NCBI GenBank assembly: GCA_027028625.1
Contig: JALVIH010000003.1
Span: 1-43,358, forward strand
DNA: 43,358 nucleotides
Source of the DNA: a bacterium
GTDB lineage: Bacteria > Patescibacteriota > Microgenomatia > JAADGY01
Direction of reading: 5' to 3'
The notes under the pieces were generated by a model, which was not told the origin of the DNA, did not search any database, and saw only the letters and a program-made list of their open reading frames with translations. Below are positions 9,850 through 42,046 of this stretch, piece after piece. Made by a program: the position numbers and the translations under genes. Position 1 is the first letter of the stretch. Each line of letters opens with the position of its first letter.

Positions 9850-10965
9850 GGAACTTGGAACTTGGTAATTGGAACTAGGAACTAGGTTAGAAAATAACCA
9901 ATTATCAAATTCCAAGTATCCAAACAAATTCCAAATTCGGCTTAATGAAAAAAATTAGTTGGTGATTTCGGGGCATACTTTGGGTATTTAGGAGGTTTTT
10001 ATGAAACAGAAAAAAGATGTTCTGCTTGTTATAGTAGTCACATTATGTCTAATACTACCAACTCTTTAGACGGTTCCATTGCTTATTTAAAAACTTTATT
10101 ACGCATCCATAAAGGTATGAATTTATCCTTACGACATAAAATTACAGATGAGGTTCTGAGAGAATTACCAACTAAAAAATTTCATTAAGTCCCAAATTCC
10201 AATAATCAAAACCTTCTTAGGAGTCATCCCGAACTTGTCGGGATCTAGCCGAAGGTGCAGGGAAATGGAACTAGGAACTAGGTTAAAAAAGCACTAAATC
10301 CTAAATTCGAAGCTCCAAACAAATTCTAATCTCTAAATTCTAAATCCTAAACTCCCTCGGTGGATAAATCCACCTTCGGGAGGAATAAAAATCCAGCCGA
10401 AAGCGCATAGGTGTATCCCAAACCTAAGTGTCAACGACCTTGCGCTCGTTTCCACTCGCTAGATCCTTCACTTCGCCTGGCGGCTCGTTCAGGATGACAT
10501 GGAGAAAGAGGTATACTCCCTCCCCGGGTCATTCTGAGTGTTAACGAAGAATCTAGCGAAGCGCAAAGTCTTAGCTCCCAAACTTGAGTAGACACCCCTG
10601 CGCCTTCGGCTAGATTCTTCACTACGTTCAGAATGACTCCTCTCTCAAGAGGTTTTGAATTTTGGTATTAGGATTTCGATTATTGCCTGCCCCGTAAAGA
10701 ATGAAATTTCTTTCGGGGTTTAGATATTAGAGTTTAGGAATTAGGGTTTGTTTGGAGCTTCGGATTTAGAATTTCGGATTTATTCCTATTTGTCTCCTTG
10801 GTATTTGTGATTTGTGCTTTCTTACCAAGTTCTGAGATCCAAGTTCTAAGTTCATCACACTCCCGAAGAGTGATAAATCACACTTTGGGAGAGTGATTTA
10901 TTCTGAGTTCCAAGCTCTGAGTTCTGTTTTATTTGAAAATTGATCATTGATAATTGGTTATTTTT
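9850..10965. repeat. Composite repeat mosaic A (heptamer arrays plus nested palindromes)
   Basis: GGAACT(T/A) and AAAT(C/T)C(T/G) heptamers; exact 18-bp inverted pair 9891-9908/10947-10964; 28-bp inverted pair 10296-10323/10747-10774; GTCAT..ATGAC units 10223-10498 and 10528-10637; modules shared with four other loci. Confidence 0.92.
9939..10191 (+). mobile_element. Non-autonomous IS256-family derivative (MITE, 253 bp)
   Basis: Imperfect terminal inverted repeats GGCTTAATGAAAAAAATTAGTTGGTG / rc GACTTAATGAAATTTTTTAGTTGGTA; 8-bp target duplication CCAAATTC (9931-9938, 10192-10199); remnant frame KRCSAC...NTTNSLDGSIAYLKTLLRIHKG. Confidence 0.82.
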
Positions 10966-13735
10966 GCCGAGTTCCATTTTCCGGGGGTTTCCAGCCAGGG
11001 GGTGGGAGTTGAGGATAATGACACTTCTTCCACTTTTTACCAGAACCACACCAACAAGGATCGTTACGGCCAAGCTTGTAACGATGAACTGTCTGTTGAG
11101 TTTGAATAGGGTTAACCTCTCCGGCCGCAGCTGTCTGAGGATTAAACTCAGCTAGGCTCCCTAAAGAGCTATCGGCTGGACCTTGAGTAACAATGGGCTT
11201 GTCAAGCAGGCTTTCTTGAGGAATCCGTTGAGGAACCAGATGGTAGAAGGAAAAAAGAGATTCTTTTTCTATTAATCTAATAAGTCTTTCAAATAAACGA
11301 AAGGCTTCTTGCTTGTATTCTACTAGAGGATCTTTTTGGGCAAAGCCGCGGACCATCACACCCTCTCGGAGTTGATCTAAAAGGTCGATATGATCAACCC
11401 AAAAATCATCAATAGATTTAAGAAGAGAAACTCTAGCTATGTCTTGAAGTATCTCCGGACCAAACTGTCCTTCCTTGGCTTTAATCGCCTTTTGGCCCAA
11501 CTCTTCCAACACCTCTTTTACCCCTGTTTTGGACTGGCCAGTAAGTTGGTCAACTAAAAACTGGCTCGACTCTTTATCTAAAGGAATAATTTTGGTATAT
11601 TCTTTAACTAGCTCCTTAGCTTCATCTTCAGATAACTTTTCTTCCTCAAAGTAAAACTCAATCAGATGGTCAAGATAGGTTTGGAGAAGTTTATTTATTT
11701 CCTCTACTAGTTTTTGAGGCTCCTTCTCAGCCAGGAGGAGAATTTTATCCCGCCGTTTGTAAATTATCTGGCGTTGCTTATTAATAACATCATCATAATC
11801 AACTAAGGACTTCCTAATATCAAAGTAGAAACTCTCTACCTTAGTCTGAGCCTGTTCGAGAGCCCTGGAGACTAAAGAATGCTCTAGAGGTTGGTCTTCA
11901 GGAAGATTGAACATCGTCATCAACCGAGAAATTTGATCCCCACCAAAGATGCGCATAATCTCATCTTCCAAAGAAACATAAAAGCGAGACATCCCTGGAT
12001 CGCCTTGACGGCCGGAACGGCCACGGAGCTGGTTGTCAATTCGCCGAGCCTCGTGACGTTCACTTCCTATCACAGCTAGGCCACCAGCCTCTACTACCTG
12101 CTGATGGCGCCTTAACCACTCTTGGTAAGCTCTACTTTTAAGATATTCTTCTTCTGATTGCCCCTTCTTTTTTTCTGGTAATGCTCCTCCCAGAACAATA
12201 TCAACTCCTCTCCCAGCCATATTAGTGGCTACAGTTACACTTCCGGGTTTACCAGCCTGGGCAATTATTTGGGCTTCTTGTTCGTGGTGTTTAGCGTTCA
12301 AGACTTGGTGGGGAATGCCTTTGTGCTTAAGAAGGTTAGAGAGAATTTGGTTCATCTCAATAGATCTTGTTCCCACCAAAACCGGCTGACCCTTTTGATG
12401 GAGTTCCTCCACTTCTCGAACGATAGCACTAAACTTGGCCCGAGTAGTTTTGTAAACCCGATCAGGGTAATCTCGGCGAATAACTGGTTTGTTTGTAGGA
12501 ATAACTACGGTGGTTAGATGATAAATTTTATCAAACTCTTCAGCTTCAGTTGCCGCTGTCCCAGTCATTCCAGCTAACTTCTGGTACATTCGGAAGTAGT
12601 TTTGAAGGGAGATGGTAGCCATTGTTTTAGATCTCTTCTGGATAGGCACTCCCTCCTTAGCCTCCAAGGCTTGATGTAAACCTTCCGAGAAGCGGCGGCC
12701 GGGCATTAGCCGACCGGTATGCTCATCAACAATAATTATCTGGTTATCCTTAACGATGTATTCCTTATCTTTATGGAAAAGTTCCTTAGCCTTTAGGGCC
12801 TGCTCAAGGTGATGGACCATCTGAAAGTTCTCTTGATAAAGGTTAGAAACACCAAGAGTTTTCTCCACTTTTCGCATTCCAAAGTCAGTTAAGGAAACAG
12901 TTTTTCTTTTTTCATCAATCTCATAGTCTCGGTCTTTAAGAAGCTGACTAGCTAATTGGGCAAAACGGAGATACATCGAGGTATCCTCTTCATCTGGGGC
13001 TGAGATAATAAGAGGGGTTCGAGCTTCGTCAATGAGGATAGAATCTACTTCATCAACAATACTGTAAAAATGGCCTCGCTGGACCTTCTCGGAAAAAGAG
13101 GCAACCATATTATCCCGAAGATAATCAAAACCAAATTCATTATTAGTGCCGTAAGTTACATCAGCTAAGTAGGCCTCACGGCGGGAAACTGGCCGAAGAT
13201 GAGCTAAGCGCTCCTCTAAGGCTTTAGGGTCGGTATAAGACGGATCGTAAAGGAAGGCTTGGTCGTGGACAATAACTCCCACACTTAAACCAAGAAAATC
13301 AAAGATCGGCCCCATCCAGCCGGCGTCCCGCTTAGCCAAATAGTCATTGACTGTCACTAGGTGAGCTCCCTTTCCATAAAGAGCATTAATATAAAGGGCT
13401 GGAACAGCCGAAAGCGTCTTGCCTTCACCTGTTTTCTGTTCAGCAATCTTGCCTTCAGCCAGGGCCCAGGCGGCCATTAATTGAACATCAAAATGACGCA
13501 TACCCACAGTCAGCTTGGCCGCTTGGCGGACAAGGGCAAAGGCATAAAACCAATCCTCTTGGGACAGTTTGTTGGCCAAGGCCTTATCCCGAAACCGCTC
13601 TGTCTGTTGGAGGAACTCTTCTCGCTTAAGCTTGGCCACTTCAGGTTCCAACCGATTAATCTGCTCGACGAACCTCCTAAGCCGGCCAAGTTCTCGACTG
13701 TTAAGATCAAAAAGTTTTTTGACAAAATCTAACAT
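10958..13735 (-). CDS. secA: Preprotein translocase ATPase SecA
   Basis: KTGEGKT, VDEVDSILIDEARTPLIIS, QLRGRSGRQGDPG, SEC-C GRNDPCWCGSGKKWKKCH; likely start ATG 13735, 7 nt after TATAAT (ORF track start 13744). Confidence 0.97.
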   Translation of the reverse strand: MLDFVKKLFDLNSRELGRLRRFVEQINRLEPEVAKLKREEFLQQTERFRDKALANKLSQEDWFYAFALVRQAAKLTVGMRHFDVQLMAAWALAEGKIAEQKTGEGKTLSAVPALYINALYGKGAHLVTVNDYLAKRDAGWMGPIFDFLGLSVGVIVHDQAFLYDPSYTDPKALEERLAHLRPVSRREAYLADVTYGTNNEFGFDYLRDNMVASFSEKVQRGHFYSIVDEVDSILIDEARTPLIISAPDEEDTSMYLRFAQLASQLLKDRDYEIDEKRKTVSLTDFGMRKVEKTLGVSNLYQENFQMVHHLEQALKAKELFHKDKEYIVKDNQIIIVDEHTGRLMPGRRFSEGLHQALEAKEGVPIQKRSKTMATISLQNYFRMYQKLAGMTGTAATEAEEFDKIYHLTTVVIPTNKPVIRRDYPDRVYKTTRAKFSAIVREVEELHQKGQPVLVGTRSIEMNQILSNLLKHKGIPHQVLNAKHHEQEAQIIAQAGKPGSVTVATNMAGRGVDIVLGGALPEKKKGQSEEEYLKSRAYQEWLRRHQQVVEAGGLAVIGSERHEARRIDNQLRGRSGRQGDPGMSRFYVSLEDEIMRIFGGDQISRLMTMFNLPEDQPLEHSLVSRALEQAQTKVESFYFDIRKSLVDYDDVINKQRQIIYKRRDKILLLAEKEPQKLVEEINKLLQTYLDHLIEFYFEEEKLSEDEAKELVKEYTKIIPLDKESSQFLVDQLTGQSKTGVKEVLEELGQKAIKAKEGQFGPEILQDIARVSLLKSIDDFWVDHIDLLDQLREGVMVRGFAQKDPLVEYKQEAFRLFERLIRLIEKESLFSFYHLVPQRIPQESLLDKPIVTQGPADSSLGSLAEFNPQTAAAGEVNPIQTQQTVHRYKLGRNDPCWCGSGKKWKKCHYPQLPPPGWKPPENGTRQK

Positions 13736-13910
13736 ACTCATCATTATAAACTATTTAGAACTCAGAAATTAGAATGTAGGGGCGTTAATTTAGTTTGAAG
13801 CGCTATCAGCAAGTTTACCTCCAGAAATCCAAATATAACTTTTTTCTCGAATAGATGTGGGGTAGGGAAATTAAGGTTTGGAATTAAAATGAAGGAGTAG
13901 TGCCGGCCAA

Positions 13911-13939
13911 TTGAACAATGTTATAGGAGGCGGTATACT
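13911..13939 (+). promoter_or_regulatory. Sigma-70 promoter (leaderless) of the ASCH-domain gene
   Basis: TTGAAC-17nt-TATACT, 6 nt before ATG 13946. Confidence 0.7.
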
Positions 13940-13945
13940 TCAGGT

Positions 13946-14947
13946 ATGGCTTTCGAAAAATTACTTCAAGGTATGCAAAAGTTTTTTGGTCTTGATCTCG
14001 AGGGAGAAAGTTGGCGGGACCATGTCATTTCCGCAAGAGAACAAACAAATTGGCGCAAATTGGTAGGAATCCAAGAAAGGGCTCTCCAAGAATTGTATGG
14101 TCAGCAGGGTTGGAAAACTTTCCAGGGGGTAGCTGAACAGTTCCGTCTTTGGGATTTAGAAAACCCTAAGGGGCTTTATCTTATTTTGGATATGGTCAGG
14201 AAAACATCATTATGGATGTTAGCTTCTTTTAAAGACTATTTTAGGTTGGAATCGTATGCTTGTGCTCTAGACCTTGTCTTGGATACCCAAATAGTAAAGC
14301 CAGCCGACGAGGTGTTACCTCTTATTTTGGGAGCCGGCCCAGTTGGCCCTTTGAGTGGGAGGGAAACTTTGGAAAGGTTAGGGGATGCTTTTCAGCCGCT
14401 TTTAAATCACCTTTGGGCTAAAGAAGAAAAATGGCAAGCGTTTCGAGAGCAGGCGCAAGCCAAACGGCCAGCTGAATCAAAGACCATAGAGATGAAACTT
14501 TACCCTTTCTACTTTGCCATGATTCAGAATGGCAGTAAGACCTTTGAGGGACGGGCGTTTAAGCCTGGAGATTGGCGTTATGCCATGCTGAGGGCGGGGG
14601 ACAAGATTCGCTTTCGGGTGGACCCCGAAGCTCCGGAAGAATATCGAGAGGACACGGTGGGGCGTAATGATAGTATGGTCTATCGGGTAGAAAAGGTTGT
14701 TTTTGGCCCGCTAGTGAGTTCGGTTTTTCGCCGGACTGGTTTAGGCATGTGCCCGGCCCAACTCTTGACCGGCGGGCGTTTTTTTCAGCCTGATGTTGCT
14801 GCGGGTGCCTATGAATTCTCGCTGGCGGAAGTTTTGGAACAAATTAACCGCTACTATCGGATTCCCGGCTACCTTGACCGCATTGCCGAGCATGGGTTTG
14901 TGGGGGTCGAGGTGAAAAAGGAGCTAGGAGCTGGGTTGAAGAAATAA
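13946..14947 (+). CDS. Protein with an unknown N-terminal domain and a C-terminal ASCH/PUA-like domain
   Basis: EMKLYPFYFAMIQNGSKTFEGR...LRAGDKIRF matches the ASCH GxKxxExR motif; visibly more G/C-rich than its neighbours. Confidence 0.75.
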   Translation: MAFEKLLQGMQKFFGLDLEGESWRDHVISAREQTNWRKLVGIQERALQELYGQQGWKTFQGVAEQFRLWDLENPKGLYLILDMVRKTSLWMLASFKDYFRLESYACALDLVLDTQIVKPADEVLPLILGAGPVGPLSGRETLERLGDAFQPLLNHLWAKEEKWQAFREQAQAKRPAESKTIEMKLYPFYFAMIQNGSKTFEGRAFKPGDWRYAMLRAGDKIRFRVDPEAPEEYREDTVGRNDSMVYRVEKVVFGPLVSSVFRRTGLGMCPAQLLTGGRFFQPDVAAGAYEFSLAEVLEQINRYYRIPGYLDRIAEHGFVGVEVKKELGAGLKK

Positions 14948-15420
14948 CCAATTATCAAATTCCAAGGATACAACAGGAATAAATCCTAAATCCGAAATCC
15001 TAAGTTCCAAACAAATCCTAAATTCTAATCTCTAATATCCAAACCCCGAAAGAAATTTCATTCTTTACGGGACAGGTAAGCCTCAATAACCAATGATCAA
15101 AACCCTCTTTCTCGAGTCATCCCGAGCAAGCTGTTTCCTCCTCTCTGGGTCATCCTGAGGAGCTGGGGCGACGAAGGATCTAGCTGATAGGCGCATGGGT
15201 TCTACTCAAGTTTGGGAGCTAAGAATTTGCGCTTCGCTAGATTCTTCGCGGGACTCAGAATGACTCGTTAATTAACTAAGTTCCAAGTTCTAAGTTCTTA
15301 GTTCCAGATAAACTGAGTTCTAAGTTCATCACACTCCCGAAGAGTGATAAAACACATTTCGTCGGGAGAGTGATTTATTCTGAGTTCCGAGTTCCGAGCT
15401 CTGAGTTCTAATTACCGAAC
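14920..15420. repeat. Composite repeat mosaic B
   Basis: GGAGCTAGGAGCTGGG, AAATAACCAATTATCAAATTCCAAG, AAATCCT array, CCCCGAAAGAAATTTCATTCTTTACGGG, GTCAT unit 15149-15264, CATCACACTCCCGAAGAGTGA module 15327-15377, AGTTC(C/T)G array. Confidence 0.92.
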
Positions 15421-15482
15421 TCCAAAAACAGTTTGTCACTTTTCTTTCTAGTTGTTAAACTAAAAAATGGGAAAGGTTATCT

Positions 15483-18407
15483 ATGTTTAAGGTAAAGATC
15501 GTTAGAGAAAAACCAACTATCGCTGTTTACTCCCGAGAATCGTTCTTCTTGGAACTTTTTCTTTACCATTTCCTTATGCGCCGAGGTGCCCAGGTATACC
15601 TCATTCATCCCCAAGCTGATCAACTTCTAAAACAACCTCATTGGCACTTTTTTACCGCTCACCCTAAGTTAAAAGTAATCTCCCTCCAAGAGGCTAAAGA
15701 AATTCATTCTAAAAAAATCGAGGCTTTTTTTGACTTGGCTCCATTATCTTGGGGTGAACATTTGGGAAAAAGTTTAAACGAGGAAATTGAGGTGGGGTAT
15801 GGTCTCATTAATCGACTTTCTTTAGCAGTACAATCAGAAACAAAATATATTCTTCTTACTCCTCTTATTTATAACCTAGCCAGTGAGCTAAACTTCTATT
15901 ACCAACTAAAAAACCAACAGCTCTTTTTAGCTCACTATGCCCAGGAGTCGCAACTTGCTTATAAAATACTCCAGTTGCCTAACTACCTCTATCCCACCTT
16001 ATTTAACCAACCTTGCCAAAACTTTCTCAGCCTTTTAATTACTTCTTTTTTAGGCAAACAACAAATCCCCCTTTCCCCTTCTACTCCTCTTTATCTGGCG
16101 GATATTGAGGGCATTATTAAAGAAGTAGAAAATCAAGTTTTTGGTTTTTCTTCTCAGAAAGAAATTTCTTTAATCGCTCAACCTCTTGCTCTTTCTTTAT
16201 TTCTAGAAAAAGTCAGAGAAATTTTTAAGATAGAAATTCAGCCCTTCTTTCAACCAACTTCGGTTGCCTTTACCCCTCTTTATCTGGGCCAACCACTTCA
16301 AACTCAATTAAGAGTAGAAAGTGACTTTTTAAAATTGTCCCGATTGGCTCAAGAAAATAAGGTTAGGTTAGCTTTTCCTCCTCGCCCCAACAAACTAAAA
16401 ATTGTTCCTCTGCACAACGATCAACCTGCTTCTTTTCAAATACCTTCGCCATCACCTATTCAAAAGGAAAAAACCAAACCCCAGAAGAAAACAAGGCTGC
16501 CTCACTTCTCTTTTAATTCTCTAACCCCTCCTAAAGTACCAACCCAATTAAAATACTTCTTATTCGCTTTTCTTTTTTTATTTCTTCTCACTAGCCTTAC
16601 TTTTGGTCTTCTTATTTTTTCTTTAAAAAAAGGAGTCTTTGAGTTCGAGAGTTGCCTTCATAGTCAAAACAATCATCTCCTTACTGGAGCTCTAAAGTCT
16701 GAACTACCCCAAAACAGTTCTCGTTGCTTAACAAAAACTAAGAAGTACCTTACTCTAGCCCAAAAAATCAACTCTTCCCTTGTCCCCATTTTTCAATTTA
16801 CAGGCTTAGCCACCACCAATGATCGAATTAGTGATATAGTTCACTTTTATCTCTCGGTTCTTAATGCTTTAGAAAAAAAGAATTCCCTACCTCTTGAGGA
16901 AACAGCTTTTTTAAATTACATCTTTAATCAAGATAGTGAGGGAGATTTCTCTTCTTACTATCACCGTCTAGACAAAGAATACTATCTTCTAACCACTAAC
17001 CTCGATAAATCAATCGCCCTCTATCGCTCAAACCAAAAAACTTATCAACAAGTTCACCTTTGGCACCTTAACAAACATTTTTCTACAACTTTTAATTACA
17101 TCCTCTCTTGGCGACAAAAACTAAAACAAAGGCTAGTTTTGTGGCAACAATTGCCTCAACTTTTAGGAACAACCAAAAGGCAGGATTACCTTATTGTTTT
17201 TGTGGATAATAATGAACTCCGACCTGGCGGCGGCTTGATTACAGCCTACGCCCAACTAACATTTGAGGGAGGACAGCTTTTGGACCTCCAAACCTTTGAT
17301 ATTTACCAACTTGATAACCAATTAACCGGTGAGGTAACTCCCCCTTCACCTCTTCAAGAATACTTGGGGCAAAAAAGTTGGCGAATAAGAGATGCTGCTT
17401 GGCAACCTTCCTATCCAGATACCGCCCGACAAATAGATTGGTTTTACCAAAAAGCCAGCGGCCAAAATATTGACGGGGTTATTTTAATTGATGATGATTT
17501 TTTAGCGGCTATGGCTGAGTTGTGGGGAGGATTTCATCTTCAGGATTTAAAACTGACCCTTAATAAAAACAATCTCCGCCGACGTCTTTTCCTCTGGGGT
17601 AATTTAGAGAAGGGCAACCAAAACCAAATCTTCGTCTCTCTTTTAAAAACTTTCTTGAGTCAACTAAAACAACTAAAGGGCCAACAGCTTCAGACCTTTA
17701 CCGCTACTTTGGATCAACTAGCCAAAACTAAGGATATTAATTTCTATTTCAATAACAGCCAATTAGAAAGTCTTTTCCTTGATCTGGGATGGGGAGGGGA
17801 GATGAAAACTCCCCAGTGTTCTCAAAATTGTATTGTTCTTTCCGGACCAGTCATCGAAGCTAACTTGGGAGCAAATAGAGTTAATTATCTTCTGTCCCAA
17901 CAACTAAAAACAGAGGTCAACATCACCCCCACTTTGATAACTGAGAACTTAAAATTGACTCTCAATAACCCTTCTTCCAGCCCTCGCTGGCCTGGAGGAA
18001 ATTACAACGATTACCTTCAGTGGTATTTTGAGCAGGGATGGAAATTAGAAGAAGTAAAAATTGGCGGAAGACACTTAGACATTGATAATATAAATGTGGC
18101 TACGCGGAGCGGATACCATATTTATAGTTTCTACCATCAGGTTGGTTACAACCAAAGCCAAACGGTCAGCCTTAAACTTAGCCGGCCCTTTAAAGAAAAC
18201 TCTAGCCTAGATCTGCTCTTTTGGCAACCCAAACAAATTGGCCTAACAATTCAAAAAGTCCTTTATCGTCTGAATCTGCCTCAAAACTCTAGAATAAAAG
18301 TCATCTCCCCCGTCGAGTGGAAAAAGAACAATCATCAAATAATATATCAGGGAGAACTAAATAAAAATATTCTCCTGCCAGTAAGGCTCAAGTTTATCTC
18401 TTTTTAA
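15483..18407 (+). CDS. DUF4012-domain membrane protein with a degenerate Rossmann/epimerase-like N-terminus
   Basis: YLIVFVDNNELRPGGGLI, RDAAWQPSYP, IDGVILID, EANLGANRVN; central TM helix. Confidence 0.8.
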   Translation: MFKVKIVREKPTIAVYSRESFFLELFLYHFLMRRGAQVYLIHPQADQLLKQPHWHFFTAHPKLKVISLQEAKEIHSKKIEAFFDLAPLSWGEHLGKSLNEEIEVGYGLINRLSLAVQSETKYILLTPLIYNLASELNFYYQLKNQQLFLAHYAQESQLAYKILQLPNYLYPTLFNQPCQNFLSLLITSFLGKQQIPLSPSTPLYLADIEGIIKEVENQVFGFSSQKEISLIAQPLALSLFLEKVREIFKIEIQPFFQPTSVAFTPLYLGQPLQTQLRVESDFLKLSRLAQENKVRLAFPPRPNKLKIVPLHNDQPASFQIPSPSPIQKEKTKPQKKTRLPHFSFNSLTPPKVPTQLKYFLFAFLFLFLLTSLTFGLLIFSLKKGVFEFESCLHSQNNHLLTGALKSELPQNSSRCLTKTKKYLTLAQKINSSLVPIFQFTGLATTNDRISDIVHFYLSVLNALEKKNSLPLEETAFLNYIFNQDSEGDFSSYYHRLDKEYYLLTTNLDKSIALYRSNQKTYQQVHLWHLNKHFSTTFNYILSWRQKLKQRLVLWQQLPQLLGTTKRQDYLIVFVDNNELRPGGGLITAYAQLTFEGGQLLDLQTFDIYQLDNQLTGEVTPPSPLQEYLGQKSWRIRDAAWQPSYPDTARQIDWFYQKASGQNIDGVILIDDDFLAAMAELWGGFHLQDLKLTLNKNNLRRRLFLWGNLEKGNQNQIFVSLLKTFLSQLKQLKGQQLQTFTATLDQLAKTKDINFYFNNSQLESLFLDLGWGGEMKTPQCSQNCIVLSGPVIEANLGANRVNYLLSQQLKTEVNITPTLITENLKLTLNNPSSSPRWPGGNYNDYLQWYFEQGWKLEEVKIGGRHLDIDNINVATRSGYHIYSFYHQVGYNQSQTVSLKLSRPFKENSSLDLLFWQPKQIGLTIQKVLYRLNLPQNSRIKVISPVEWKKNNHQIIYQGELNKNILLPVRLKFISF

Positions 18408-18409
18408 TC

Positions 18410-18733
18410 TTACTTCCTTATTATTTCTTTCAAGGGTGGGGAGTGATAAATTTCTTTTTTAATCAAATAAAACTTCTCTTCCGATGGTCCAAGGAGTAAT
18501 TTTTCTCTTGCTTTTACCTCTAATTGGGTTGGGTCGTTAACTGTTTGAAGTTCTTCTTGTAGTCTCCGGTTATTCTCGATTAGTTTATCGACTTCTTTTA
18601 CCACTTTTTTCCCACTCAAATATATCTGATACTCTTGCCAGGTAATTTTCAGCTGGTGGAGAATTAAAATCAAAAGAAAAACATTAAACACCAAAAGAAA
18701 CCATCTATGTGACAAGTTGTGTTTCGTCGCCAT
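18410..18733 (-). CDS. Septum formation initiator (FtsB/DivIC-like)
   Basis: N-terminal TM, coiled coil ENNRRLQEEL, DPTQLEVKAREKLLL. Confidence 0.75.
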   Translation of the reverse strand: MATKHNLSHRWFLLVFNVFLLILILHQLKITWQEYQIYLSGKKVVKEVDKLIENNRRLQEELQTVNDPTQLEVKAREKLLLGPSEEKFYLIKKEIYHSPPLKEIIRK

Positions 18734-18737
18734 AAGT

Positions 18738-21074
18738 TTACAACCTAGCCCTTTGGGCTATCTCACGCTCAACTTCGTAGCGATCGCGGCCATACTTCAA
18801 CTGCGAAAGCTGGCGAATCATCTCGGCTACCTTTGGGTTCCTCATTCTTTCTTGAACACTCATATCCTTGGTTAGGTCTAAAGAAAAGGCTGGCAGAGGC
18901 TCATTGTTATAAATCGTCTTAATGTAAGCGTGGTACTTCTCAATGTTTAGGAGGTCGGTCTGACTAAAAACCGGAGCAAACTCGTTCTGAAGATAGTTAG
19001 CGTCAGTTACTCCCACCCGGAAGGAGATAAGGGTGCCAACATTACCAAAGACAGCGTTCTTAACCTCATCCTCCATCTGGCTAATAAACTGGTTGGCTAC
19101 CGTTAGGTTAAGGTGATACTTTCTGGCTTCGGAAAGAATTTGAGCAAAATCAGGAGTGGCAAAGTTCTGGAACTCATCTACATAAAGATAAAAATCCCGC
19201 CGCTGTTCCTCAGGCACGTCTTGGCGGCTCATGGCGGCCATTAAGATGCGGGGGACTAAAACCAAGCCTAAAAAGCTCGAGTTCTCTTCACCAATCTTCC
19301 CTTTTGCCAAACTAATTAAGAGGATTTTTCCTTCATCCATAACCTTCCGAAAATCAAAAGCGCTCTTCGACTGGCCGATTATGTTCCGCATCATTGGATT
19401 AGTGACAAAGCGGCCAAATTTAGAGACTATATAATCAAGAACTTCCGATTTGTGGAAGTCAGAAGTTTTAGCTATTTGATCAGTCCAATAACGCCGAACC
19501 ATAGGGTTCTTTACCTTAGGGAGAAGAGACCGCATATAATTATCGTCGGTTAATACCCGGACCACCTCAACAAAAGAGGCTCCCGGCTCAGCAGTAACAG
19601 TCAAGATGGCGTTGCGGACAGCATGCTCAAAACGGGGACCAACAATCCCTGTTTTGTGGGGATCAAAAAGTTTGTACATCATATTAATGATGGCTGAGGC
19701 AATAAATTGTTTCTGGTCCTCCGTCTTATATTCCAGAAGGTTGAGCCCCATCGGCCGGTCAAGGTTAGAGGGGTCAAAGAGAATTACATCCTCGGCTCGG
19801 TTAGGAGGGATTAACTCTAAGAGAATATCAATAGTGTCATGAGGGTCAATGAAACAAATACCTTTACCGGCTTTGATGTCTTGAAGCATCATATCAAGAA
19901 GGAATTGGGATTTCCCAGCCCCTGTTTTCCCAATAATATACATATGCCGACTCCGGTCCTTGTCTTGAATATAGACAGGTCGGCGGATACCACGGAAGTC
20001 ATTGTAACCCAAGAAGAGACCGCTGGTTGGAATTTGGGCTGGAGCTGGGGCCCTTTTGGCCATCAACCAGTGGATAAAAGGGGTTTCCACTGTTTTGTTA
20101 GGGAAGTGAAAGATGCTGGCCAACTCGTCGGTTGAGAGGATGGAGGTTCGACCAAAAAGAGGCAGGTAACGATAAATAACATCAAGCATAAACATTTTCT
20201 TGAACCAAATCTTCTTACTAACCAAGGCATTGTAGGCTGACTGGAACTGAGAAAAGGCGGCCACAATTTCTTTAAGGTGGGCTTCGGCTCGCTCCTTTTG
20301 GGGGGAAACCACCACCAAACGAAGGTCAGTGACAAAACCAGGCTTGGAACATTTATTCTCAATGGCGTCATAAGTTTTGGGGTCGATATTGTAATTTGCT
20401 TTTTTGGGGTCGGACTCTTCCTTTTTCTTATGGGCTATCCAACTCTTTCCTTGTTTTTGCCAGCGGTTAGAGGCAGGGGTAAGAACTATCTGGAAAATAG
20501 CCCCTTCCCCCTCCATCATCTTAGCCATAGCCGAAGTAATGGGGGCAATGCTGTCTGTGGCCATTTCTTTATAGGTCTTTAGCGGCCAGAAGGGTGCATT
20601 TTTTGTTTTTAGAGCAGTAAAAGCCACATAACCGTCTTTGGTAAAGATATTGTGGTCCTCAACAACCTTGATAAGAGCTTCTGGATAAGCCCCATAAATT
20701 TGCTTCTCTACTAACTGAAAGTCGTCTTCAGGGACGCTGATGTAGAAGCCAATGTTTTCTTTTGTGGCCACTAACTCGAGGGTTAGATGGCGGGGATGTT
20801 TAAAAAAACGGCTCCACCAATGAGAATGATAAAGGGAGGCAAAAGAAGAGAACATTTGTTCAGCTGCATCAACTTTTATTTCGTTGTCTTTAGGCACTAG
20901 GACTTCAAATGTAACCATCGAAAGAGACCTCTCTTCCCGACGGCGGTACTTTAACCATAAAAAGAACAACCAGATTAAAGCCAATAGAATACCAAAGAAA
21001 AAAAGAAAGGCAAAAAGGCTAACTGTAAAAGTAGTTAGTCTAAGAATAAGGGTGTTTAAGAACTCCTGGAACAT
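18738..21074 (-). CDS. VirB4/TraG-VirD4-like (HerA/FtsK superfamily) ATPase of the CPR type
   Basis: N-terminal TM, HMYIIGKTGAGKS (Walker A), YLYVDEFQNF (Walker B), LSEARKYHLNLTVANQ. Confidence 0.88.
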   Translation of the reverse strand: MFQEFLNTLILRLTTFTVSLFAFLFFFGILLALIWLFFLWLKYRRREERSLSMVTFEVLVPKDNEIKVDAAEQMFSSFASLYHSHWWSRFFKHPRHLTLELVATKENIGFYISVPEDDFQLVEKQIYGAYPEALIKVVEDHNIFTKDGYVAFTALKTKNAPFWPLKTYKEMATDSIAPITSAMAKMMEGEGAIFQIVLTPASNRWQKQGKSWIAHKKKEESDPKKANYNIDPKTYDAIENKCSKPGFVTDLRLVVVSPQKERAEAHLKEIVAAFSQFQSAYNALVSKKIWFKKMFMLDVIYRYLPLFGRTSILSTDELASIFHFPNKTVETPFIHWLMAKRAPAPAQIPTSGLFLGYNDFRGIRRPVYIQDKDRSRHMYIIGKTGAGKSQFLLDMMLQDIKAGKGICFIDPHDTIDILLELIPPNRAEDVILFDPSNLDRPMGLNLLEYKTEDQKQFIASAIINMMYKLFDPHKTGIVGPRFEHAVRNAILTVTAEPGASFVEVVRVLTDDNYMRSLLPKVKNPMVRRYWTDQIAKTSDFHKSEVLDYIVSKFGRFVTNPMMRNIIGQSKSAFDFRKVMDEGKILLISLAKGKIGEENSSFLGLVLVPRILMAAMSRQDVPEEQRRDFYLYVDEFQNFATPDFAQILSEARKYHLNLTVANQFISQMEDEVKNAVFGNVGTLISFRVGVTDANYLQNEFAPVFSQTDLLNIEKYHAYIKTIYNNEPLPAFSLDLTKDMSVQERMRNPKVAEMIRQLSQLKYGRDRYEVEREIAQRARL

Positions 21075-21112: not shown

Positions 21113-21170
21113 CGCCCATTTACAATTTTGGTCGGAGTGGGTATTATATTCTTGTTGACATTTTAGGCTC

Positions 21171-21294
21171 GGAAATCAAAGGAATTGGGTGAAAATCCCA
21201 AGCTGTGCCGCAACCGTGAGAGGAGTTCTCCTCGAGTCGGGAACTTTGATTTCTAAGTTAGTTACCGGAGGCCCTCGAGCAAGGGTTGGTCCGG
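21171..21294 (+). ncRNA. Cobalamin riboswitch-like RNA (compact class-II architecture)
   Basis: Closing stem GAAATCAAAG/CTTTGATTTC; GGAA; TTGGG-TGAAAAT-CCCAA T-loop hairpin; GCTGTGCCGCAACCGT; GAGGAG/CTCCTC stem; GAGTCGG; downstream CCC-TCGAGCAA-GGG loop complementary to L5 TGCCG; upstream promoter TTTACA-17nt-TATTAT (21119-21147). Confidence 0.75.
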
Positions 21295-21332
21295 GTAGAG
21301 TTTCTCTCCCCGATCCTTGCTGAGGGGAAAAG

Positions 21333-29524: not shown

Positions 29525-29528
29525 TTTA

Positions 29529-31225: not shown

Positions 31226-31228
31226 AGT

Positions 31229-31324: not shown

Positions 31325-31332
31325 ATAAAGAA

Positions 31333-34356: not shown

Positions 34357-34365
34357 GGAGGCAAG

Positions 34366-37181: not shown

Positions 37182-38314
37182 TTTTGGTGATAGCCAGTTA
37201 ACTTTTGGTGAGAACAAGCCAAAGTGTTGGTAGCTAAAGCGGCCATTAGAGAAAGCTCCCCACCAGCTATGGCGGTGGTTAATACCTCTGCCAAGATGGC
37301 TGAGCGTCGGCCCCGATAGCTTTTCTTGGCTCCGGCCAGGACTAACTCGATCGCCTCCTTTTGAGTTGGTAGTTGGGTTCCTCCACCAACGCTGCCAATG
37401 TTGAGGCTAGGAAGAAAAAGGGAGAGGTAGAGGTCTTTATTTCTTTTTTCCATAACCAAGATAGCCTGACTATTATCAGCAATATGGGCCAGATCCTGGC
37501 CGGTAGCTAGGTAGAAAGCAGCCAAGACATTAGCAATATGGGCATTAAAACTTACTCCACCAACTAAAGCTGTTCCATACCAAATTTTTTGTTGGTAAGT
37601 AGCCAAAAGATCATCAAGGTTGGTTTTTAAGACGGTATGAATTATTGAGGAAGGAATAATAGCTTCCAACCATACTTGAAATCCGCGGCCAAAAAAGAGA
37701 TTGACGAAAGAAAACTTTTTATCCGGGCAAAAATTGGCCGAGATAGTGGTTAACTTTAAACCTAGTTCTGTCTCGATGATGTCAGCTAAGGCGGTGGTGG
37801 CATAAGTGGTCATATTCATTCCCATCGCCTCGTCGGTATCAAAACGAAAGCGGACAAAAAGGTAACGGCCAAGAACTTGAGTTTGAATCTTTAGAAGATG
37901 GGTATGTTGGCTTAACCTTTTCAGGCGGCGGACAAACTTAGGTTGGAGCTCAGTTTTTATCTTCTCAGCAGCCCTAAAAGCAGACTTTAAGTCAGGGGCA
38001 ACGAAAACAGGCCCTCGGGTCATCCCCACATATTGGCTGACGATTTGGAGGCTTTTAGCTTGCCTTAGGGCTTTTAATCCTCGGTTAACGCTAGCCACCA
38101 AGGCCCCCTCAGTAGTAGCTAAGGGGACGATAAATTTTCCTTTCCCCTTAATTTCTATAGGCCCAGCTAGGCCAAGGGGAACTTGGGTAGCCCCAACCAT
38201 ATTCTCGATATTTTTACCTTGCCATTCTGGACCAAGAATAGTCTGAGAAATTTCTTTAGGTTGGAAGGGCAAAGGGGGAAGGTGATGATTTTTCTTTTTT
38301 AAAACCATAGGCAA
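37178..38314 (-). CDS. hmgA: HMG-CoA reductase, class I (NADPH)
   Basis: ENMVG..QVPLG, PLATTEGALVAS, DEAMGMNM, NFCPDKK, TGQDLAH, VGGGT, GELS. Confidence 0.94.
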   Translation of the reverse strand: MPMVLKKKNHHLPPLPFQPKEISQTILGPEWQGKNIENMVGATQVPLGLAGPIEIKGKGKFIVPLATTEGALVASVNRGLKALRQAKSLQIVSQYVGMTRGPVFVAPDLKSAFRAAEKIKTELQPKFVRRLKRLSQHTHLLKIQTQVLGRYLFVRFRFDTDEAMGMNMTTYATTALADIIETELGLKLTTISANFCPDKKFSFVNLFFGRGFQVWLEAIIPSSIIHTVLKTNLDDLLATYQQKIWYGTALVGGVSFNAHIANVLAAFYLATGQDLAHIADNSQAILVMEKRNKDLYLSLFLPSLNIGSVGGGTQLPTQKEAIELVLAGAKKSYRGRRSAILAEVLTTAIAGGELSLMAALATNTLACSHQKLTGYHQK

Positions 38315-38904
38315 AGAAACTGTTTAAATGAATAAAACCAAGAGAAAGTAAGAAAAAGGATTAGCCAACTTAAAAGTGGTCTTTGGTTGTTAATGATTCT
38401 CAGCCAGAGATAAAAAATGAGGGTTTGAAGAAGAAAAAGAAAGATGGTGAAACTTAAAAAAGAGAAGTCTGTTAGGGCTAGATTAATCCCTCGAAGGCGC
38501 ACCCAGACTGAACGGAGCAGCAACCACAAGGCAGGTAATGGGAGAAAATAGATTAAACTAAAAATTTGTTTCCATTCCCTAGGATAAAGAAGGGCAATAA
38601 GGCTTACTCCAGCTGTTAGGAGGAGAATTATCCAGGCCAGCTCTTGCCAGATTAGTAGCCGCCGCCACAAACCAATTGGTTGAGGATGGATGATTAGTTC
38701 GGCTAACCAAAGAAGAAGGAGAGTAAATCCTATAATTAATCCACCCCCAACCAAGGTTGTTCTTTGTAAAAGGCGGTTAATAGTTAAAAAAGGATGGAGC
38801 CAGAAGCCGGCCAGGACTGAGGTAACTTTTAGGCTGTTTGCCTCAATTTTTTGGAGAAGAGTGTTCCCATCCAGAACCAGTCTTTTTTTAATTGTTAGTG
38901 GCAT
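38299..38904 (-). CDS. Multi-pass membrane hypothetical protein in the upper mevalonate operon
   Basis: About five hydrophobic segments; overlaps the HMGR start. Confidence 0.7.
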   Translation of the reverse strand: MPLTIKKRLVLDGNTLLQKIEANSLKVTSVLAGFWLHPFLTINRLLQRTTLVGGGLIIGFTLLLLWLAELIIHPQPIGLWRRLLIWQELAWIILLLTAGVSLIALLYPREWKQIFSLIYFLPLPALWLLLRSVWVRLRGINLALTDFSFLSFTIFLFLLQTLIFYLWLRIINNQRPLLSWLILFLTFSWFYSFKQFLCLWF

Positions 38905-39068
38905 AACGGTTGGCGGAAATAAGCCTGCCAGTTAAGTTGGAGGAATTGGTTAAGAACTAGGAAAATAAAACTTAAGATAAAGGAAATGAGGAGGAGTTTT
39001 AATCCGCCATTAAGGCCGGCCACCTCAGTTAACCACCAGCTTTCTAGTGTTTTGTCTAGTTTGTCCAT
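38895..39068 (-). CDS. Small single-TM protein (57 aa), first gene of the upper mevalonate operon; not in the ORF track
   Basis: MDKLDKTLESWWLTEVAGLNGGLKLLLISFILSFIFLVLNQFLQLNWQAYFRQPLCH*; TATATT 5 nt upstream; overlaps the next ORF by 10 nt. Confidence 0.6.
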   Translation of the reverse strand: MDKLDKTLESWWLTEVAGLNGGLKLLLISFILSFIFLVLNQFLQLNWQAYFRQPLCH

Positions 39069-39118
39069 CCATAAATATAGTCCGGTTGAGAACCCAAAAT
39101 CATTCGCTGTTTGGGACC

Positions 39119-39570
39119 GGAACTCAGTTTATCTGGAACTAAGAACTCAGCAGAAATTCCAATTATCAAATTCCAAGTATCCAAACAAACTCCAAATCCC
39201 AATAACCAATGATCAAGCCATTGTTTTTCGAGTCATTCTGAGCCCCGCGAAGAATCTAGCCGAAGGCGCATGGAATGGGGCTAGGAACTAGGTTGGAAAA
39301 CAATTAATAACTGTAGTGAGAGTTTAGAAGAAACCTGAGTGCCAGCGACTTTGCGCTCGCTCCGCTCGCTAGATCCTTCGTCGCCATGGCTCCTCAGGAT
39401 GACTCCTCGGGCGGTTCTTTACTTTACGAACTTTATGAACTTTATGGACTTTCTAACTTTACAAACTAAGTTCTGAGTTCTAGGTTCATCACACTCCCGA
39501 AGAGTGATAAAACACACTTCGGGAGAGTGATTTATTCCGAGTTCTAAGTTCCAAACTCTAAGTTCTGATT
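39119..39570. repeat. Composite repeat mosaic E
   Basis: GAACTCAGTTTATCTGGAACTAAGAACT (exact reverse complement of 15293-15320), AATTATCAAATTCCAAGTATCCAAACAAA, GTCAT unit 39232-39403, 9-mer tandem ACTTTA(C/T)G(A/G) 39421-39462, CATCACACTCCCG module 39487-39534. Confidence 0.92.
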
Positions 39571-39597
39571 ACCCGATTGTAGTATACTTAACTTAGG

Positions 39598-39921
39598 ATG
39601 GAAGTAAGAAAGGTGGTAAAGTATATTACTATAGGGTTAGGCAGTTTAATTGGGATAGCTATTTTGGTTTTAACAGTAGTTAATGTTCGTCAGTATCAGC
39701 AACGGACGACATCAGCCCACCCCATTGATTGTTACCTTAATTGGTGTGAGGGGAGAGTGGTTAAAGAAGGTAAAGGTTATGTCATTGAGTTCTCCCAACC
39801 CCTTTCTAGAAGATATCCCCTTAAAGAATTTTCTTATGATATTTCCTCTCTTGAAGGAAAGGTGATTAAAGTTAAGGGGGTAGTAAAAGACAATTATTTT
39901 TATCTGACATCAGTAAAATAA
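39598..39921 (+). CDS. Membrane-anchored hypothetical protein
   Basis: N-terminal TM followed by a small beta-rich domain (LEGKVIKVKGVV). Confidence 0.7.
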   Translation: MEVRKVVKYITIGLGSLIGIAILVLTVVNVRQYQQRTTSAHPIDCYLNWCEGRVVKEGKGYVIEFSQPLSRRYPLKEFSYDISSLEGKVIKVKGVVKDNYFYLTSVK

Positions 39922-39925
39922 CTCG

Positions 39926-40354
39926 ATGAGTAGTTACCTGATTGTTTCTGATGGTGGTTCTCGTGGTAATCCAGGACCGGCTGCTTCAGCTTTTGTAGTT
40001 TTTCAAGATGGCAAACAAAATTTTATGGCCGGTTTTTATTGGGGGAGAAAGACTAATAATCAAGCTGAATATCTGGCCCTAATTATGGCTCTAGAGTGGT
40101 TAAAGAAAGAAGATCTTTCTCTTGAAGATGAGATTACTTTTCGTTCTGACTCGGAGCTGATGATAAAACAGCTAAAAGGGGAGTATAAAGTTAAATCTCC
40201 TCAAATAAGGATTCTTTTTGAAAAAAGCCGACAGCTTCTTCAGAGTCTTTCCGAAAGAGGTGTTTCTTTTAGGTTGGAACATAAACTCCGTCAACATACT
40301 CATTCGGCTGACTCTCTTTTAAATAAGATTTTGGATATGGTTTCCCAAAAATGA
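39926..40354 (+). CDS. rnhA: Ribonuclease HI family protein
   Basis: SDGGSRGNPGPA, TNNQAEY, SDSELMIKQLKGEYKVK, ADSLLN. Confidence 0.92.
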   Translation: MSSYLIVSDGGSRGNPGPAASAFVVFQDGKQNFMAGFYWGRKTNNQAEYLALIMALEWLKKEDLSLEDEITFRSDSELMIKQLKGEYKVKSPQIRILFEKSRQLLQSLSERGVSFRLEHKLRQHTHSADSLLNKILDMVSQK

Positions 40355-41076
40355 AGCCAAACTTTCCCAAACACATTGCTATTATTATGGATGGTAACCG
40401 CCGCTGGGCTAGGCGTCATGGCCTGAGTGTTTTGTCGGGACATAAACAAGCAGCGGAAAAAACTATCGAACCCATCGTTGACCGCTTGGCTAAGATTGGT
40501 ATTCCTTATGTTACTCTCTGGGCTTTTTCTACTGAAAATTGGAGGCGCGACCCCCAAGAAGTTAAGGGGTTAATTGAGATCTTCCGCCAAGGAATTAAAA
40601 ACCAAGGCGACCACTTTCTCCAGCAAGGTTATCGTTTACGGGTTATAGGGGACTATAAAGCCTTTCCACAAGATATAGTTAAGCTAATAGATTATTATCA
40701 ACAAGCCTCGGCTAAAAATAAACGGTTGACGGTTATTTTTGCTCTGAATTATGGTGGTCGAGATGAAATTCTTCGAGCCATAGGCAGGATTTATCGAGAG
40801 AATCCTCATTTTTTTACAAAGATAGAGAAGGCAGATTGGCAAGAAAGAAAAAAGTTGGCTCTTCAGTTGGCCGAGTATTTAGACACTCGAGGACTGCCCG
40901 ATCCAGATATGATTATCCGCACCGGTGGGGAAAAACGCCTTTCAGGCTACCTTCTCTGGCAGATGGAGTATGCCGAGTTGTTTTTTACCCCTACTCTCTG
41001 GCCTGATTTTGGGCCTGAAGAGCTGGATAAGCTTATTCAGGAGTTTCTCCATCGTCAGCGCCGTTTTGGTAAGTAA
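40351..41076 (+). CDS. uppS: Undecaprenyl/polyprenyl diphosphate synthase
   Basis: HIAIIMDGNRRWA, AFSTENWRR, LNYGGRDEI, IRTGGEKRLSGYLLWQ. Confidence 0.96.
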   Translation: MKPNFPKHIAIIMDGNRRWARRHGLSVLSGHKQAAEKTIEPIVDRLAKIGIPYVTLWAFSTENWRRDPQEVKGLIEIFRQGIKNQGDHFLQQGYRLRVIGDYKAFPQDIVKLIDYYQQASAKNKRLTVIFALNYGGRDEILRAIGRIYRENPHFFTKIEKADWQERKKLALQLAEYLDTRGLPDPDMIIRTGGEKRLSGYLLWQMEYAELFFTPTLWPDFGPEELDKLIQEFLHRQRRFGK

Positions 41077-41108
41077 TTTTTTATCTTATCTCTAATATAT
41101 AATGAGCT

Positions 41109-41654
41109 ATGAAGATTCTCTTTGTTGGTTTGGGAAATCCAGAGGAGAAGTATCTCTTAACTCGGCATAATGCTGGTCGCCGTTGGGTTGAGTTTTGGGG
41201 AGATAGGTTACAAGGAAAATGGCAGAAGAGAGAGAAACTTTTTAGTGTTGTTTTGGAGTCCAATGAAACTATCTTTTCTTACCCCCTTCTTTATATGAAT
41301 GAATCCGGTCGGGCAGTCAAGAAATTGTTAGATTGGTACCATCTACCCCCAACCCAATTATGTTTGGTCCACGATGAGTTGGATCTGCCTCTAGGAAGTT
41401 GGAAACTCAGTTTCGGCAAAGGCTCTCCCCTCCATAAAGGAGTTGCTTCAGTGGAGGAAAATCTTGGGGGAGGGAGTTTTTGGCGACTGCGTTTAGGTAT
41501 AGATAATCGGCCATCTAATCAGCGGATGCCGGGAATAAAATATGTTCTCCAAAAGTTTTCACCAAGAGAAGATGATATTTTCTCCAAGCTCGTTCACACT
41601 TTAGCCCCAACAGAGATTATTAAGGTGATGACCAGTAAGGCTAATAAATCCTAA
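41109..41654 (+). CDS. pth: Peptidyl-tRNA hydrolase
   Basis: VGLGNP..Y..TRHNAG, YMNESG, VHDELDLP, RLRLGI. Confidence 0.95.
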   Translation: MKILFVGLGNPEEKYLLTRHNAGRRWVEFWGDRLQGKWQKREKLFSVVLESNETIFSYPLLYMNESGRAVKKLLDWYHLPPTQLCLVHDELDLPLGSWKLSFGKGSPLHKGVASVEENLGGGSFWRLRLGIDNRPSNQRMPGIKYVLQKFSPREDDIFSKLVHTLAPTEIIKVMTSKANKS

Positions 41655-42046
41655 ATCCTAAACTCTAATATCTAAACCCCGAAAGAAATTTCATTCTTTA
41701 CGGGGCAGGCAATAATCAAAATCCTAACGATTTAAATTCAAAACACTTGGAACATTGGTTATTGGAATTTGGTACTTGGAGTTTAGTATTGTGTCATCCT
41801 GAGGAGCTGGGGCGACGAAGGATCTAGCGAAGCGCAAAGAACTTAGCTCCCAAACTTGAGTAGACAACCATGCGCCTATCGGCTAGATCCCGACAAGTCG
41901 GGATGACACAAAGGACAAAGTTTTGGATTTAGATCATTAGGATTTCGAATTTGTTTAGGACCTGCCTGCCGGCAGGCAGGTTTGGGATTTAGAATTTAGT
42001 GCTTTCTTACCGAGTTCCAAGTTCCGATTACCTAGCTCCTAGTTCC
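41643..42046. repeat. Composite repeat mosaic F
   Basis: 41656-41717 is an exact 62-bp reverse complement of 10678-10739; GTCAT unit 41793-41907; perfect palindrome CCTGCCTGCCGGCAGGCAGG 41961-41980; heptamer arrays at both ends. Confidence 0.92.

Follow-up and report, generated by a model that had tools for sequence, protein, structure and literature searches.

The contig analyzed here (JALVIH010000003.1 of assembly GCA_027028625.1; 43,358 nucleotides, taken whole and called the window below) comes from a bacterium of the Microgenomatia in the Patescibacteriota and carries secA, dnaG, dnaA, metG, fpg, uppS, pth, and rnhA together with five composite hairpin units. As an original prediction made from the letters of the window had described, each unit consists of a GTCAT-tagged hairpin arm, a spacer of the form GCGCA-core-TGCGC, and an inverted arm ending in ATGAC; both the form and the positions of all five units hold (Table 1). 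In other genomes the same type of arm is physically linked to genes for Ssn-like proteins, relatives of a small GIY-YIG nuclease that recognizes its hairpin site in single-stranded DNA (ssDNA). We consider it likely that the arms are Ssn-related motifs (SRM) and that each unit is a pair of inverted Ssn sites from which the nuclease gene is missing.

Within its genome, here G000, the window is contig C3; the assembly comprises 724,557 bases in 54 contigs (90.8% complete), many of which end in arms, and the genomes of relatives in the class measure 0.7–1.8 Mb. The window holds 11 copies of the sequence GTCATYCYGA where 0.16 would be expected, a count reached by none of 100 shuffles, and genome-wide there are 196 such ends, 65 composite units of 107–306 nt, and five solo palindromes of 24 nt. 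When a fuller pattern ending in ATCYAG was used, 137 arms were found in G000 and 288 in its congener, G001; two other genera of the family had none, two class relatives had 9 and 31, and 35 further relatives (41 searched in all) had none. The arm motif also occurs in at least 126 stretches spanning many phyla.

By crude gene calls, which also underlie the intergenic classes below, 87.6% of G000 is coding, and repeats of at least five copies make up 5.4% of its bases and 40% of its non-coding bases. Called open reading frames (ORFs) overlap 11 of the 137 arms, and because all of these are frames of 89–115 aa running through repeats, the arms are in effect intergenic. Of the intergenic regions, 19 of 90 between divergent genes contain arms, as do 10 of 91 between convergent genes and 37 of 439 between genes in tandem (chi-square P = 0.002), an over-representation at divergent genes that does not fit a role at mRNA 3′ ends.

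Arm anatomy, covariation, and strand preference

Each arm reads, in order, GTC, AT-YCY, GA, an inner hairpin of 7–19 nt, GA (TC in the short type), RGR-AT, and CTAG(C), and about eight arm types recur. The short type has an 8-bp stem, and the G.A types have 5 bp, tandem G.A pairs, and then at least 2 bp, closed by loops of 3–4 nt or by nested hairpins. GTC precedes every arm, and the same tag stands on the arms of other phyla; the base before it varies (A in 69, C in 32, G in 19, and T in 17 of the 137 arms) while GTC itself is invariant. When hairpins were detected without fixing the tail, CTAG followed in 141 cases in G000.

The stem covariation that had been noticed in the window was borne out on a larger set. 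In G000, 132 of 154 arms have a completely paired outer triplet (shuffle mean 85, maximum 97 in 1000 shuffles), as have 163 of 171 arms of other phyla (shuffle mean 87, maximum 99), for which the search pattern imposed no complementarity on the outer triplets. Further in, the next two base pairs of the inner stem are present in 80 of 110 arms of G000 and 107 of 143 of other phyla, compared with 39 and 46, respectively, in shuffles. The interruption of the arms by G.A pairs was likewise confirmed: the GA...GA arrangement is present in 113 of the 154 and 151 of the 171 arms, the Watson-Crick arrangement GA...TC in 28 and 8, and TC...TC in none of either set. Among the short arms of other phyla, GNA loops dominate (GAA 11, GCA 8, GTA 7, GGA 7), and in these phyla GC-GNA-GC is the commonest inner hairpin. 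The tandem G.A pairs and GNA loops are conserved across phyla. In the double-G.A type (arm type B, 39 copies), four loop columns vary in 30–40% of copies and the stem columns, the covarying outer pair excepted, in 0%; the same pattern of variable loops and fixed stems recurs in other arm types. Since the stems are invariant, the loops are free, and the G.A pairs are kept rather than corrected, the arms appear to be under continuing constraint as hairpins, a constraint seen as covariation.

The G.A pairs and GNA loops had been taken as ssDNA-type signatures, with a complementary strand that would fold poorly. The complement does fold worse, but only modestly so with DNA parameters, by which the tag strand reaches −2.9 kcal/mol and its complement −2.45 kcal/mol, the tag strand being better in 46 of 56 arms. 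With RNA parameters the values are −7.3 and −4.9 kcal/mol (tag strand better in 48 of 56). Because the gap is larger with RNA than with DNA parameters, the hairpin signatures alone fail to separate the two, and their reading as a mark of ssDNA is not supported.

Composite units and their mosaic surroundings

In all 43 units that could be classified the spacer is polar, with GCGAAGC or GCGAGC-loop-GCGAGC on one side and GCCGAAGGC or GCCGATAGGC on the other, both surrounding the GCGCA...TGCGC core. The 23-mer core predicted for the window is present at 10570 (+), 15201 (−), and 41842 (+) and the second core at 10420 and 39331, occurrences of which none is expected by chance, and the small hairpins said to adjoin the arms (GCGAAGC, GCCGAAGGC, GCGAGCGGAGCGAGC) are found there too. 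Any arm type may stand on either side of the spacer, yet identical pairs are avoided, with 1 homodimer among 65 units against 10.5 expected (P ~1e-4). The original prediction was therefore right that different arm types are combined around a common spacer; the exchange of arms that it placed at the GATCTAG junction was not established, and its picture of sites facing inward is reversed, as the conserved GTC tags point outward.

Abutting direct repeats of 2 nt flank 2 of the 65 units, compared with 1.9 in shuffled pairs, so no target-site duplication was detected, and complementarity between the two flanks of the same unit is no greater than between flanks taken from different units. No clean unit-level copies were found in G000, where no pair of units is bounded by both unit ends; the best pair (94.5% identity over 275 nt) continues into both flanks, and many other unit alignments stop exactly at a unit end. 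The units are embedded in mosaics of heptamer-like runs, CT-rich connectors, and small modules, and CT/GA-rich connectors of the kind that joins units 1 and 2 join neighboring units elsewhere in the genome too. One 17-nt module, CCCCCCTTCGGTAGGGG, is present in 39 copies, among which each of the four possible pairings of a left with a right context is represented, a pattern indicative of exchange between copies. The mosaic that holds units 1 and 2 is composed of heptamer-like runs, small hairpin modules, and the two units themselves.

The genes of G000 and G001 are 82–85% identical, and the repeat-filled gaps between them are unalignable, with no empty site readable. The fpg and secA genes have the same orientation in the window (8900-13768) and opposite orientations in the congener (G001:C28), and the breakpoint falls in the gap that contains units 1 and 2 and is filled with repeats. 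When contigs of four public sequencing runs were compared with window positions 1-20000, no presence/absence polymorphism was readable, as the contigs stop at repeats; the joints listed in them derive from other repeat copies, and depth over the repeat blocks was about 5–20 times that of the flanks. Seven DNA runs from three studies hold the organism, and no RNA run is listed. A metagenome scan with the Pth protein returned 106 pattern matches and no relative among them, and in a full-text literature search for six arm 11-mers the matches listed were primers or unrelated sequences only.

Table 1 Hairpin units, connectors, and multi-copy mosaic blocks in the window.
Feature	Position	Length or strand	Description
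Mosaic block with units 1 and 2	9851..10982		At least 5 copies genome-wide; fills the fpg-secA gap
Sub-blocks of this mosaic	9851-9938 and 10187-10982		
Unit 1	10223..10498	276 nt	Left arm 10223-10248, short Watson-Crick hairpin type
Unit 1, right arm	10459-10498	−	Long G.A type
Unit 1, spacer			Extended by nested small hairpins and heptamer-like repeats; core 2 at 10420-10448
Connector, units 1 to 2	10499..10527	29 nt	CT/GA-rich, palindromic
Unit 2	10528..10637	110 nt	Arms 10528-10556 (+) and 10610-10637 (−), both of G.A type, mutually different
Unit 2, spacer			GCGAAGC on the left, 23-mer core 10570-10592, GCCTTCGGC on the right
Mosaic block with unit 3	14920..15418		Multi-copy
Truncated arm (GTCATCCCGAGC...), then CT-rich stretch	15116..15148	+	Recurrent module ahead of units
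Unit 3	15149..15264	116 nt	Arms 15149-15183 (+, double G.A type) and 15237-15264 (−)
Unit 3, spacer			Polarity reversed; 23-mer core 15201-15223 on the − strand
Mosaic block with unit 4	39134..39573		Multi-copy
Unit 4	39232..39403	172 nt	Arms 39232-39259 (+) and 39369-39403 (−)
Unit 4, spacer			Lengthened; core 2 at 39331-39359; long small hairpin GCGAGCGGAGCGAGC (− strand reading)
Mosaic block with unit 5	41645..42047		Multi-copy
Unit 5	41793..41907	115 nt	Arm 41793-41827 (+, double G.A type); 23-mer core 41842-41864
Unit 5, right arm	41883-41907	−	Short Watson-Crick type

The mosaics have features of their own. Heptamer- or octamer-like runs (GAACTTA/GAACTCA, AAAGTTC/ATAAAGTT, AAATCCT/AAATTCT, TTGGAAT/TTGGTAC, CAATGAT) flank nearly every unit, with tandem examples in the window at 10270-10345, 15275-15320, 39425-39460, and 41745-41790. 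These runs resemble the STRR repeats of cyanobacteria, yet they lie in a 0.72 Mb genome; an identification of the repeats as cyanobacterial (small dispersed repeats, Nezha, or STRR heptamers) was dropped in view of this genome size and the 0.7–1.8 Mb of the relatives. Inside unit 1, at 10343-10395, a small hairpin, TGGA-ATAAA-TCCA, is nested in a CCCCC-TTCGG...GGGG module with TTCGG on both sides of it, and has the look of an inserted segment, some 20 nt long, accompanied by a short duplication; it also occurs at C5:3051, C16:26770, and C48:2825. The five solo palindromes, each a perfect 24-nt palindrome of GTC, hairpin, and GAC, are at C14:9434-9457, C14:10468-10491, C36:42318-42341, C45:222-245, and C54:2709-2732, and could be what remains of a doublet with short-type arms on both sides after a deletion between copies of the 8-nt direct repeat shared by the arms. 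Doublets in Anaerolineae (L048, L062, L079) share the spacer ends of the window units, GCGAAGCGCAAA... and ...GCGCTCGCTTCGCTCGCTAG, and because doublets of a distant phylum carry the same ends, the composite unit is not an invention of this genus.

A scan of the window against Rfam at gathering thresholds found an adenosylcobalamin (AdoCbl, B12) riboswitch alone, at 21154-21297 (+) with 69.4 bits and an E of 6.9e-11, upstream of a run of + strand ORFs from 21444, and gave no match for the units. Between 15483 and 21074, a 974-aa protein with a DUF4012 domain adjoins, on the opposite strand, a 778-aa VirD4/TraD-like coupling ATPase, and an ORF resembling a type IV secretion system pilin lies elsewhere in the genome (L160:10801-11202).

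Ssn-like nucleases beside the arms, and rival explanations

SsnA of Neisseria, as described by Chenal 2025 (Nat Commun 16:2388, PMC11893778), is a 94-aa GIY-YIG protein that binds and cuts its site as ssDNA only, and not as the reverse strand, double-stranded DNA, or RNA. The site, NTS, has the form CGTCAT-palindrome-ATCYRG and is generalized there to the SRM; cutting depends on the three bases before the palindrome and binding on the C after it, and the cut falls a few bases upstream. The same account reports a motif near 71% of Ssn homologs and on both sides of 42%, and a roughly five-fold reduction by SsnA of transformation with NTS-bearing DNA (PMC11893778).

A search for small GIY-YIG genes led to an Ssn-like gene in the class relative G019 (L225:414-680) that is enclosed by G.A-type arms, a protein gene between arms of the kind that had been proposed as a check on the units; a second Ssn-like gene (L231) has CGTC-1-like doublets on its flanks. 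With a profile of two Ssn-like proteins (A1), we identified 557 relatives among 598 metagenome pattern matches and kept 80 loci, of which 69 had a gene that could be delimited and 59 of those had at least 150 nt on each side. A GTCAT-tagged hairpin lies within 150 nt of the gene in 51 of these 59 loci, on both sides of it in 42, and with the tags outermost in 32, and such hairpins are 8.4 times denser beside the genes than further off. A C directly follows 200 of the 267 hairpins at these loci. Of the 59 loci, 16 have strict G.A-type ends no more than 250 nt from the gene, and the density of these ends is 9-fold higher near it. In a quick tree of 71 proteins, four of six G.A-arm-flanked genes group together (SH-aLRT 92), and the G.A-flank label requires 3 changes against 5.9 in shuffles (0 of 500 shuffles that low); this clustering carries little weight, given a short alignment with poor resolution. 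NCBIfam gave no specific model for these small GIY-YIG proteins, only sub-threshold matches to a group I intron endonuclease model.

These associations, together with the arm-enclosed gene of G019, are why we take the units to be Ssn sites paired in inverted orientation without a gene between them, with arms that belong, as judged by their sequence frame, to the NTS/SRM family. The original prediction of strand-specific ssDNA recognition sites accordingly keeps its likeness to repetitive extragenic palindromes (REPs), in that the frame matches sites that SsnA reads as ssDNA only and G.A arms flank Ssn-like genes, while its likeness to attC adds nothing. On the preferred reading, the GTCAT arm would be an NTS/dRS3-like, CGTC-tagged REP hairpin that folds in ssDNA and is read on one strand, and a small single-domain GIY-YIG protein of the Ssn type would, by analogy with SsnA, bind the hairpin and the following C and cut a few bases 5′ of the GTC tag. 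In a unit, two such sites would enclose a structured spacer that has a polarity, each tag at the outer end and the two on opposite strands; this is the architecture of an SRM-ssn-SRM cassette minus the nuclease gene; the units may for that reason be miniature derivatives of such cassettes, piled up in intergenic mosaics like those of Escherichia coli and Neisseria. We infer that a cognate Ssn cuts G.A-type arms, much as SsnA cuts NTS, that the cutting may act on incoming or replicating ssDNA in this organism, and that the doublets may have spread through the nuclease. Imported ssDNA is a plausible substrate, since G000 encodes ComEC, DprA, a ComEA-like protein, and RecA.

Several results weigh against this reading. 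The homologs for which binding and cutting are described are those of Neisseria and Wolbachia (PMC11893778), not any that would read the G.A subclass, and the published SRM search sequence, HGTCWYN(0-2)YYVSBRHN(0-5)WNVSBRGN(0-2)RNCYNB, fits 0 of the 137 arms; genome-wide in G000 it has 4 matches, all in spacer cores, compared with 1.95 in shuffles. The A1 profile found no intact close Ssn gene in G000 at 90.8% completeness, its sole match being a broken 50-aa frame at C44:9642-9743 (23 bits), and in G001 (88% complete) its matches were limited to a pair of GIY-YIG genes that are more distant and linked to tRNAs (45 and 29 bits); matches in G019 were strong. No close Ssn gene was found in any of the four genomes of the family, and the 12 of 41 relatives with an A1-like gene at an E of 1e-15 or better all lie outside it. 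Across the 41, arms and Ssn occur together in 1 (G019 only), arms without Ssn in 3, Ssn without these arms in 11, and neither in 26. Finally, neither clean unit copies nor a presence/absence polymorphism were seen that would show the doublets to be mobile. The absence of the gene from a binned genome is itself weak evidence, because a gene of about 300 bases among high-copy repeats would probably end up on a very short contig.

In G001, the small GIY-YIG genes L223 (C26:1-1300) and L224 (C21:2600-3900) each have a tRNA gene on one side and a second copy of its 3′ part on the other, and lie 160–220 nt upstream of a GTCAT unit; G000 keeps a broken GIY-YIG remnant beside the orthologous tRNA (G000:C44:9621-9743), and several GIY-YIG genes of G019 and of the relative G012 also adjoin tRNA genes.

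The arms may, alternatively, be orphan relics of Ssn sites whose partner enzyme was lost in the lineage, without present function, persisting and being reshuffled by homologous recombination between copies and by template switching within quasi-palindromes. Such relics would account for two genomes of the genus without an intact close Ssn gene and for intergenic repeats that do not align between congeners, with fpg and secA inverted across a repeat-filled gap, and inter-copy recombination would be expected to place CCCCCCTTCGGTAGGGG in all four contexts. We nevertheless hold this explanation to be unlikely: invariant stems, variable loops, and retained G.A pairs speak for continuing constraint, and the gene loss that it builds on could reflect binning. 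Still less probable is a function at the RNA level, with the hairpins as mRNA stabilizers, attenuators, or small RNAs. The tag strand is clearly the stabler one with RNA parameters, and many REPs have been argued to be transcribed (Di Nocera, PMC3733652), but the arms occur in every intergenic type and most often between divergent genes, either transcript of any unit would have its two arms in different forms, G.A and U.C, the units match nothing in Rfam, and SsnA is reported not to bind the RNA form of its site (PMC11893778).

We give the least credence, and very little, to mobilization by a transposase, whether as doublets like REPINs (REP doublets forming hairpins) moved by an HUH (Y1) enzyme of the RAYT (REP-associated tyrosine transposase) type, or as miniature inverted-repeat transposable elements (MITEs) moved by a DDE transposase. 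The doublet form does resemble REPINs (PMC3116915), Y1_Tnp genes are present in 29 of 41 relatives, and in G001, G002, and G003 (L131-L134) trmD is immediately followed downstream by a RAYT-like Y1_Tnp gene of 183–228 aa that has HUH and YxHxNP-type motifs. The G001 copy, however, is wedged between its neighboring genes without flanking hairpins, G002 and G003 have the gene and 0 arms, and in G019 none of 13 Y1 genes adjoins any of the 31 arms. In G000 no match to Y1_Tnp was found, and its trmD-linked slot is empty of one; this partner was rejected. The single homodimer among 65 units and the chance-level flanking repeats (2 of 65, against 1.9) also argue against the proposal, as do the failure to find an IS110-type gene in five genomes and the lack of any transposase family, or of any bounded by arms, among the 136 of 678 G000 ORFs scanned with Pfam. 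The place next to trmD in G000 is occupied by a different small ORF (G000:C11:47-1218). Tyrosine recombinases, at 1–3 per genome, were rejected as partners as well, being present in genomes with and without arms alike.

The Ssn/SRM pairing was first described in 2025, and any such nuclease together with its site could potentially serve as a programmable ssDNA cutter. The tandem-G.A/GNA subclass occurs in many phyla and is invisible to the published motif, so surveys of SRM abundance and of Ssn specificities would undercount. More speculatively, and with considerable doubt, the tandem-G.A arms might form a separate Ssn specificity class overlooked by that motif, of which hundreds of sites (137 and 288 per ~0.7 Mb) would persist in a lineage lacking a canonical ssn gene, to be read by tRNA-linked GIY-YIG nucleases of the G001 type, by the nuclease of an unassembled element, or by that of another cell; on this view the repeats would mark the organism's DNA and settle its fate whenever uptake renders it single-stranded. 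Multi-copy mosaic repeats, the hairpin units among them, take up about 5% of a 0.72 Mb genome and 40% of its non-coding DNA, and the avoidance of identical arms and the apparent lack of a nuclease gene raise the questions of how the sites are kept up, what role they have under DNA uptake, and whether they drive the rearrangements between congeners.

Comparison with known systems

Compared with NTS and SRM as published (PMC11893778), the arms have the same GTC tag, a palindrome that starts from AT, and a C followed by YRG, the window arms reading GTCAT-YCY...RGR-ATCTAG, and both critical positions, the three nucleotides before the palindrome and the C after it, are fixed here. As in that system, there are hundreds of copies, nearly all intergenic, inverted copies bracket a segment, and the same arm type stands beside Ssn-like genes in other genomes. 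They differ in that the stems in the window are broken by one or two tandem G.A pairs and enclose nested inner hairpins of 7–19 nt, and in their host, a 0.72 Mb genome where, as in its congener, an intact close ssn gene was not found.

REPs tagged with CGTC were catalogued by Di Nocera, De Gregorio, and Rocco 2013 (BMC Genomics 14:522, PMC3733652), and SRM fall within this class as it is described there. According to that catalogue, the tag is CGTC, with TGTC or CCTC tolerated, head-to-head dimers predominate, heterodimers are frequent, the spacers are structured and conserved, and no transposase is associated. The elements of the window share with these REPs an unpaired tag ending in GTC, stems that start from AT, a 3-nt tail (CTA here, CCA there), head-to-head dimers and heterodimers, conserved spacers with small stem-loops at their ends, and no adjacent transposase. 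The four published families, in contrast, have plain stems of 8–9 bp with loops of 4–5 nt, G.A-type arms are absent from the intragenic examples in the supplement to the catalogue (PMC3733652), and the arms of G000 are over-represented between divergent genes rather than downstream of genes.

In the neisserial intergenic mosaic elements (dRS3-flanked RS units) and the bacterial interspersed mosaic elements (BIMEs) of E. coli, as in the window, inverted hairpin units alternate with a few conserved spacer modules, fill intergenic gaps, and mark points of rearrangement; the sequence families differ, and BIME hairpins are GTAG-tagged and linked to RAYTs. REPINs with their RAYTs have a GTAG tag, near-identical arms, and a RAYT gene flanked by the repeats, whereas the tag here is GTC, the units are heterodimers, and Y1_Tnp was not found in G000 and does not adjoin the arms in G001 or G019. 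A classical MITE would have a target-site duplication and an autonomous insertion sequence with the same ends, neither of which was found here in the 65 units and the 136 of 678 ORFs scanned with Pfam. Elhai et al. are said to have described, in 2008, small dispersed repeats of Nostoc in which very small hairpin modules of ~20 nt are nested in other repeats and in heptamer runs, and by that description the CCCCCCTTCGGTAGGGG module can be likened to them, although the present host is not a cyanobacterium. The class to which the GTCAT arms are assigned is thus a known one, and what differs here is the G.A-mismatched variant with its nested hairpins.

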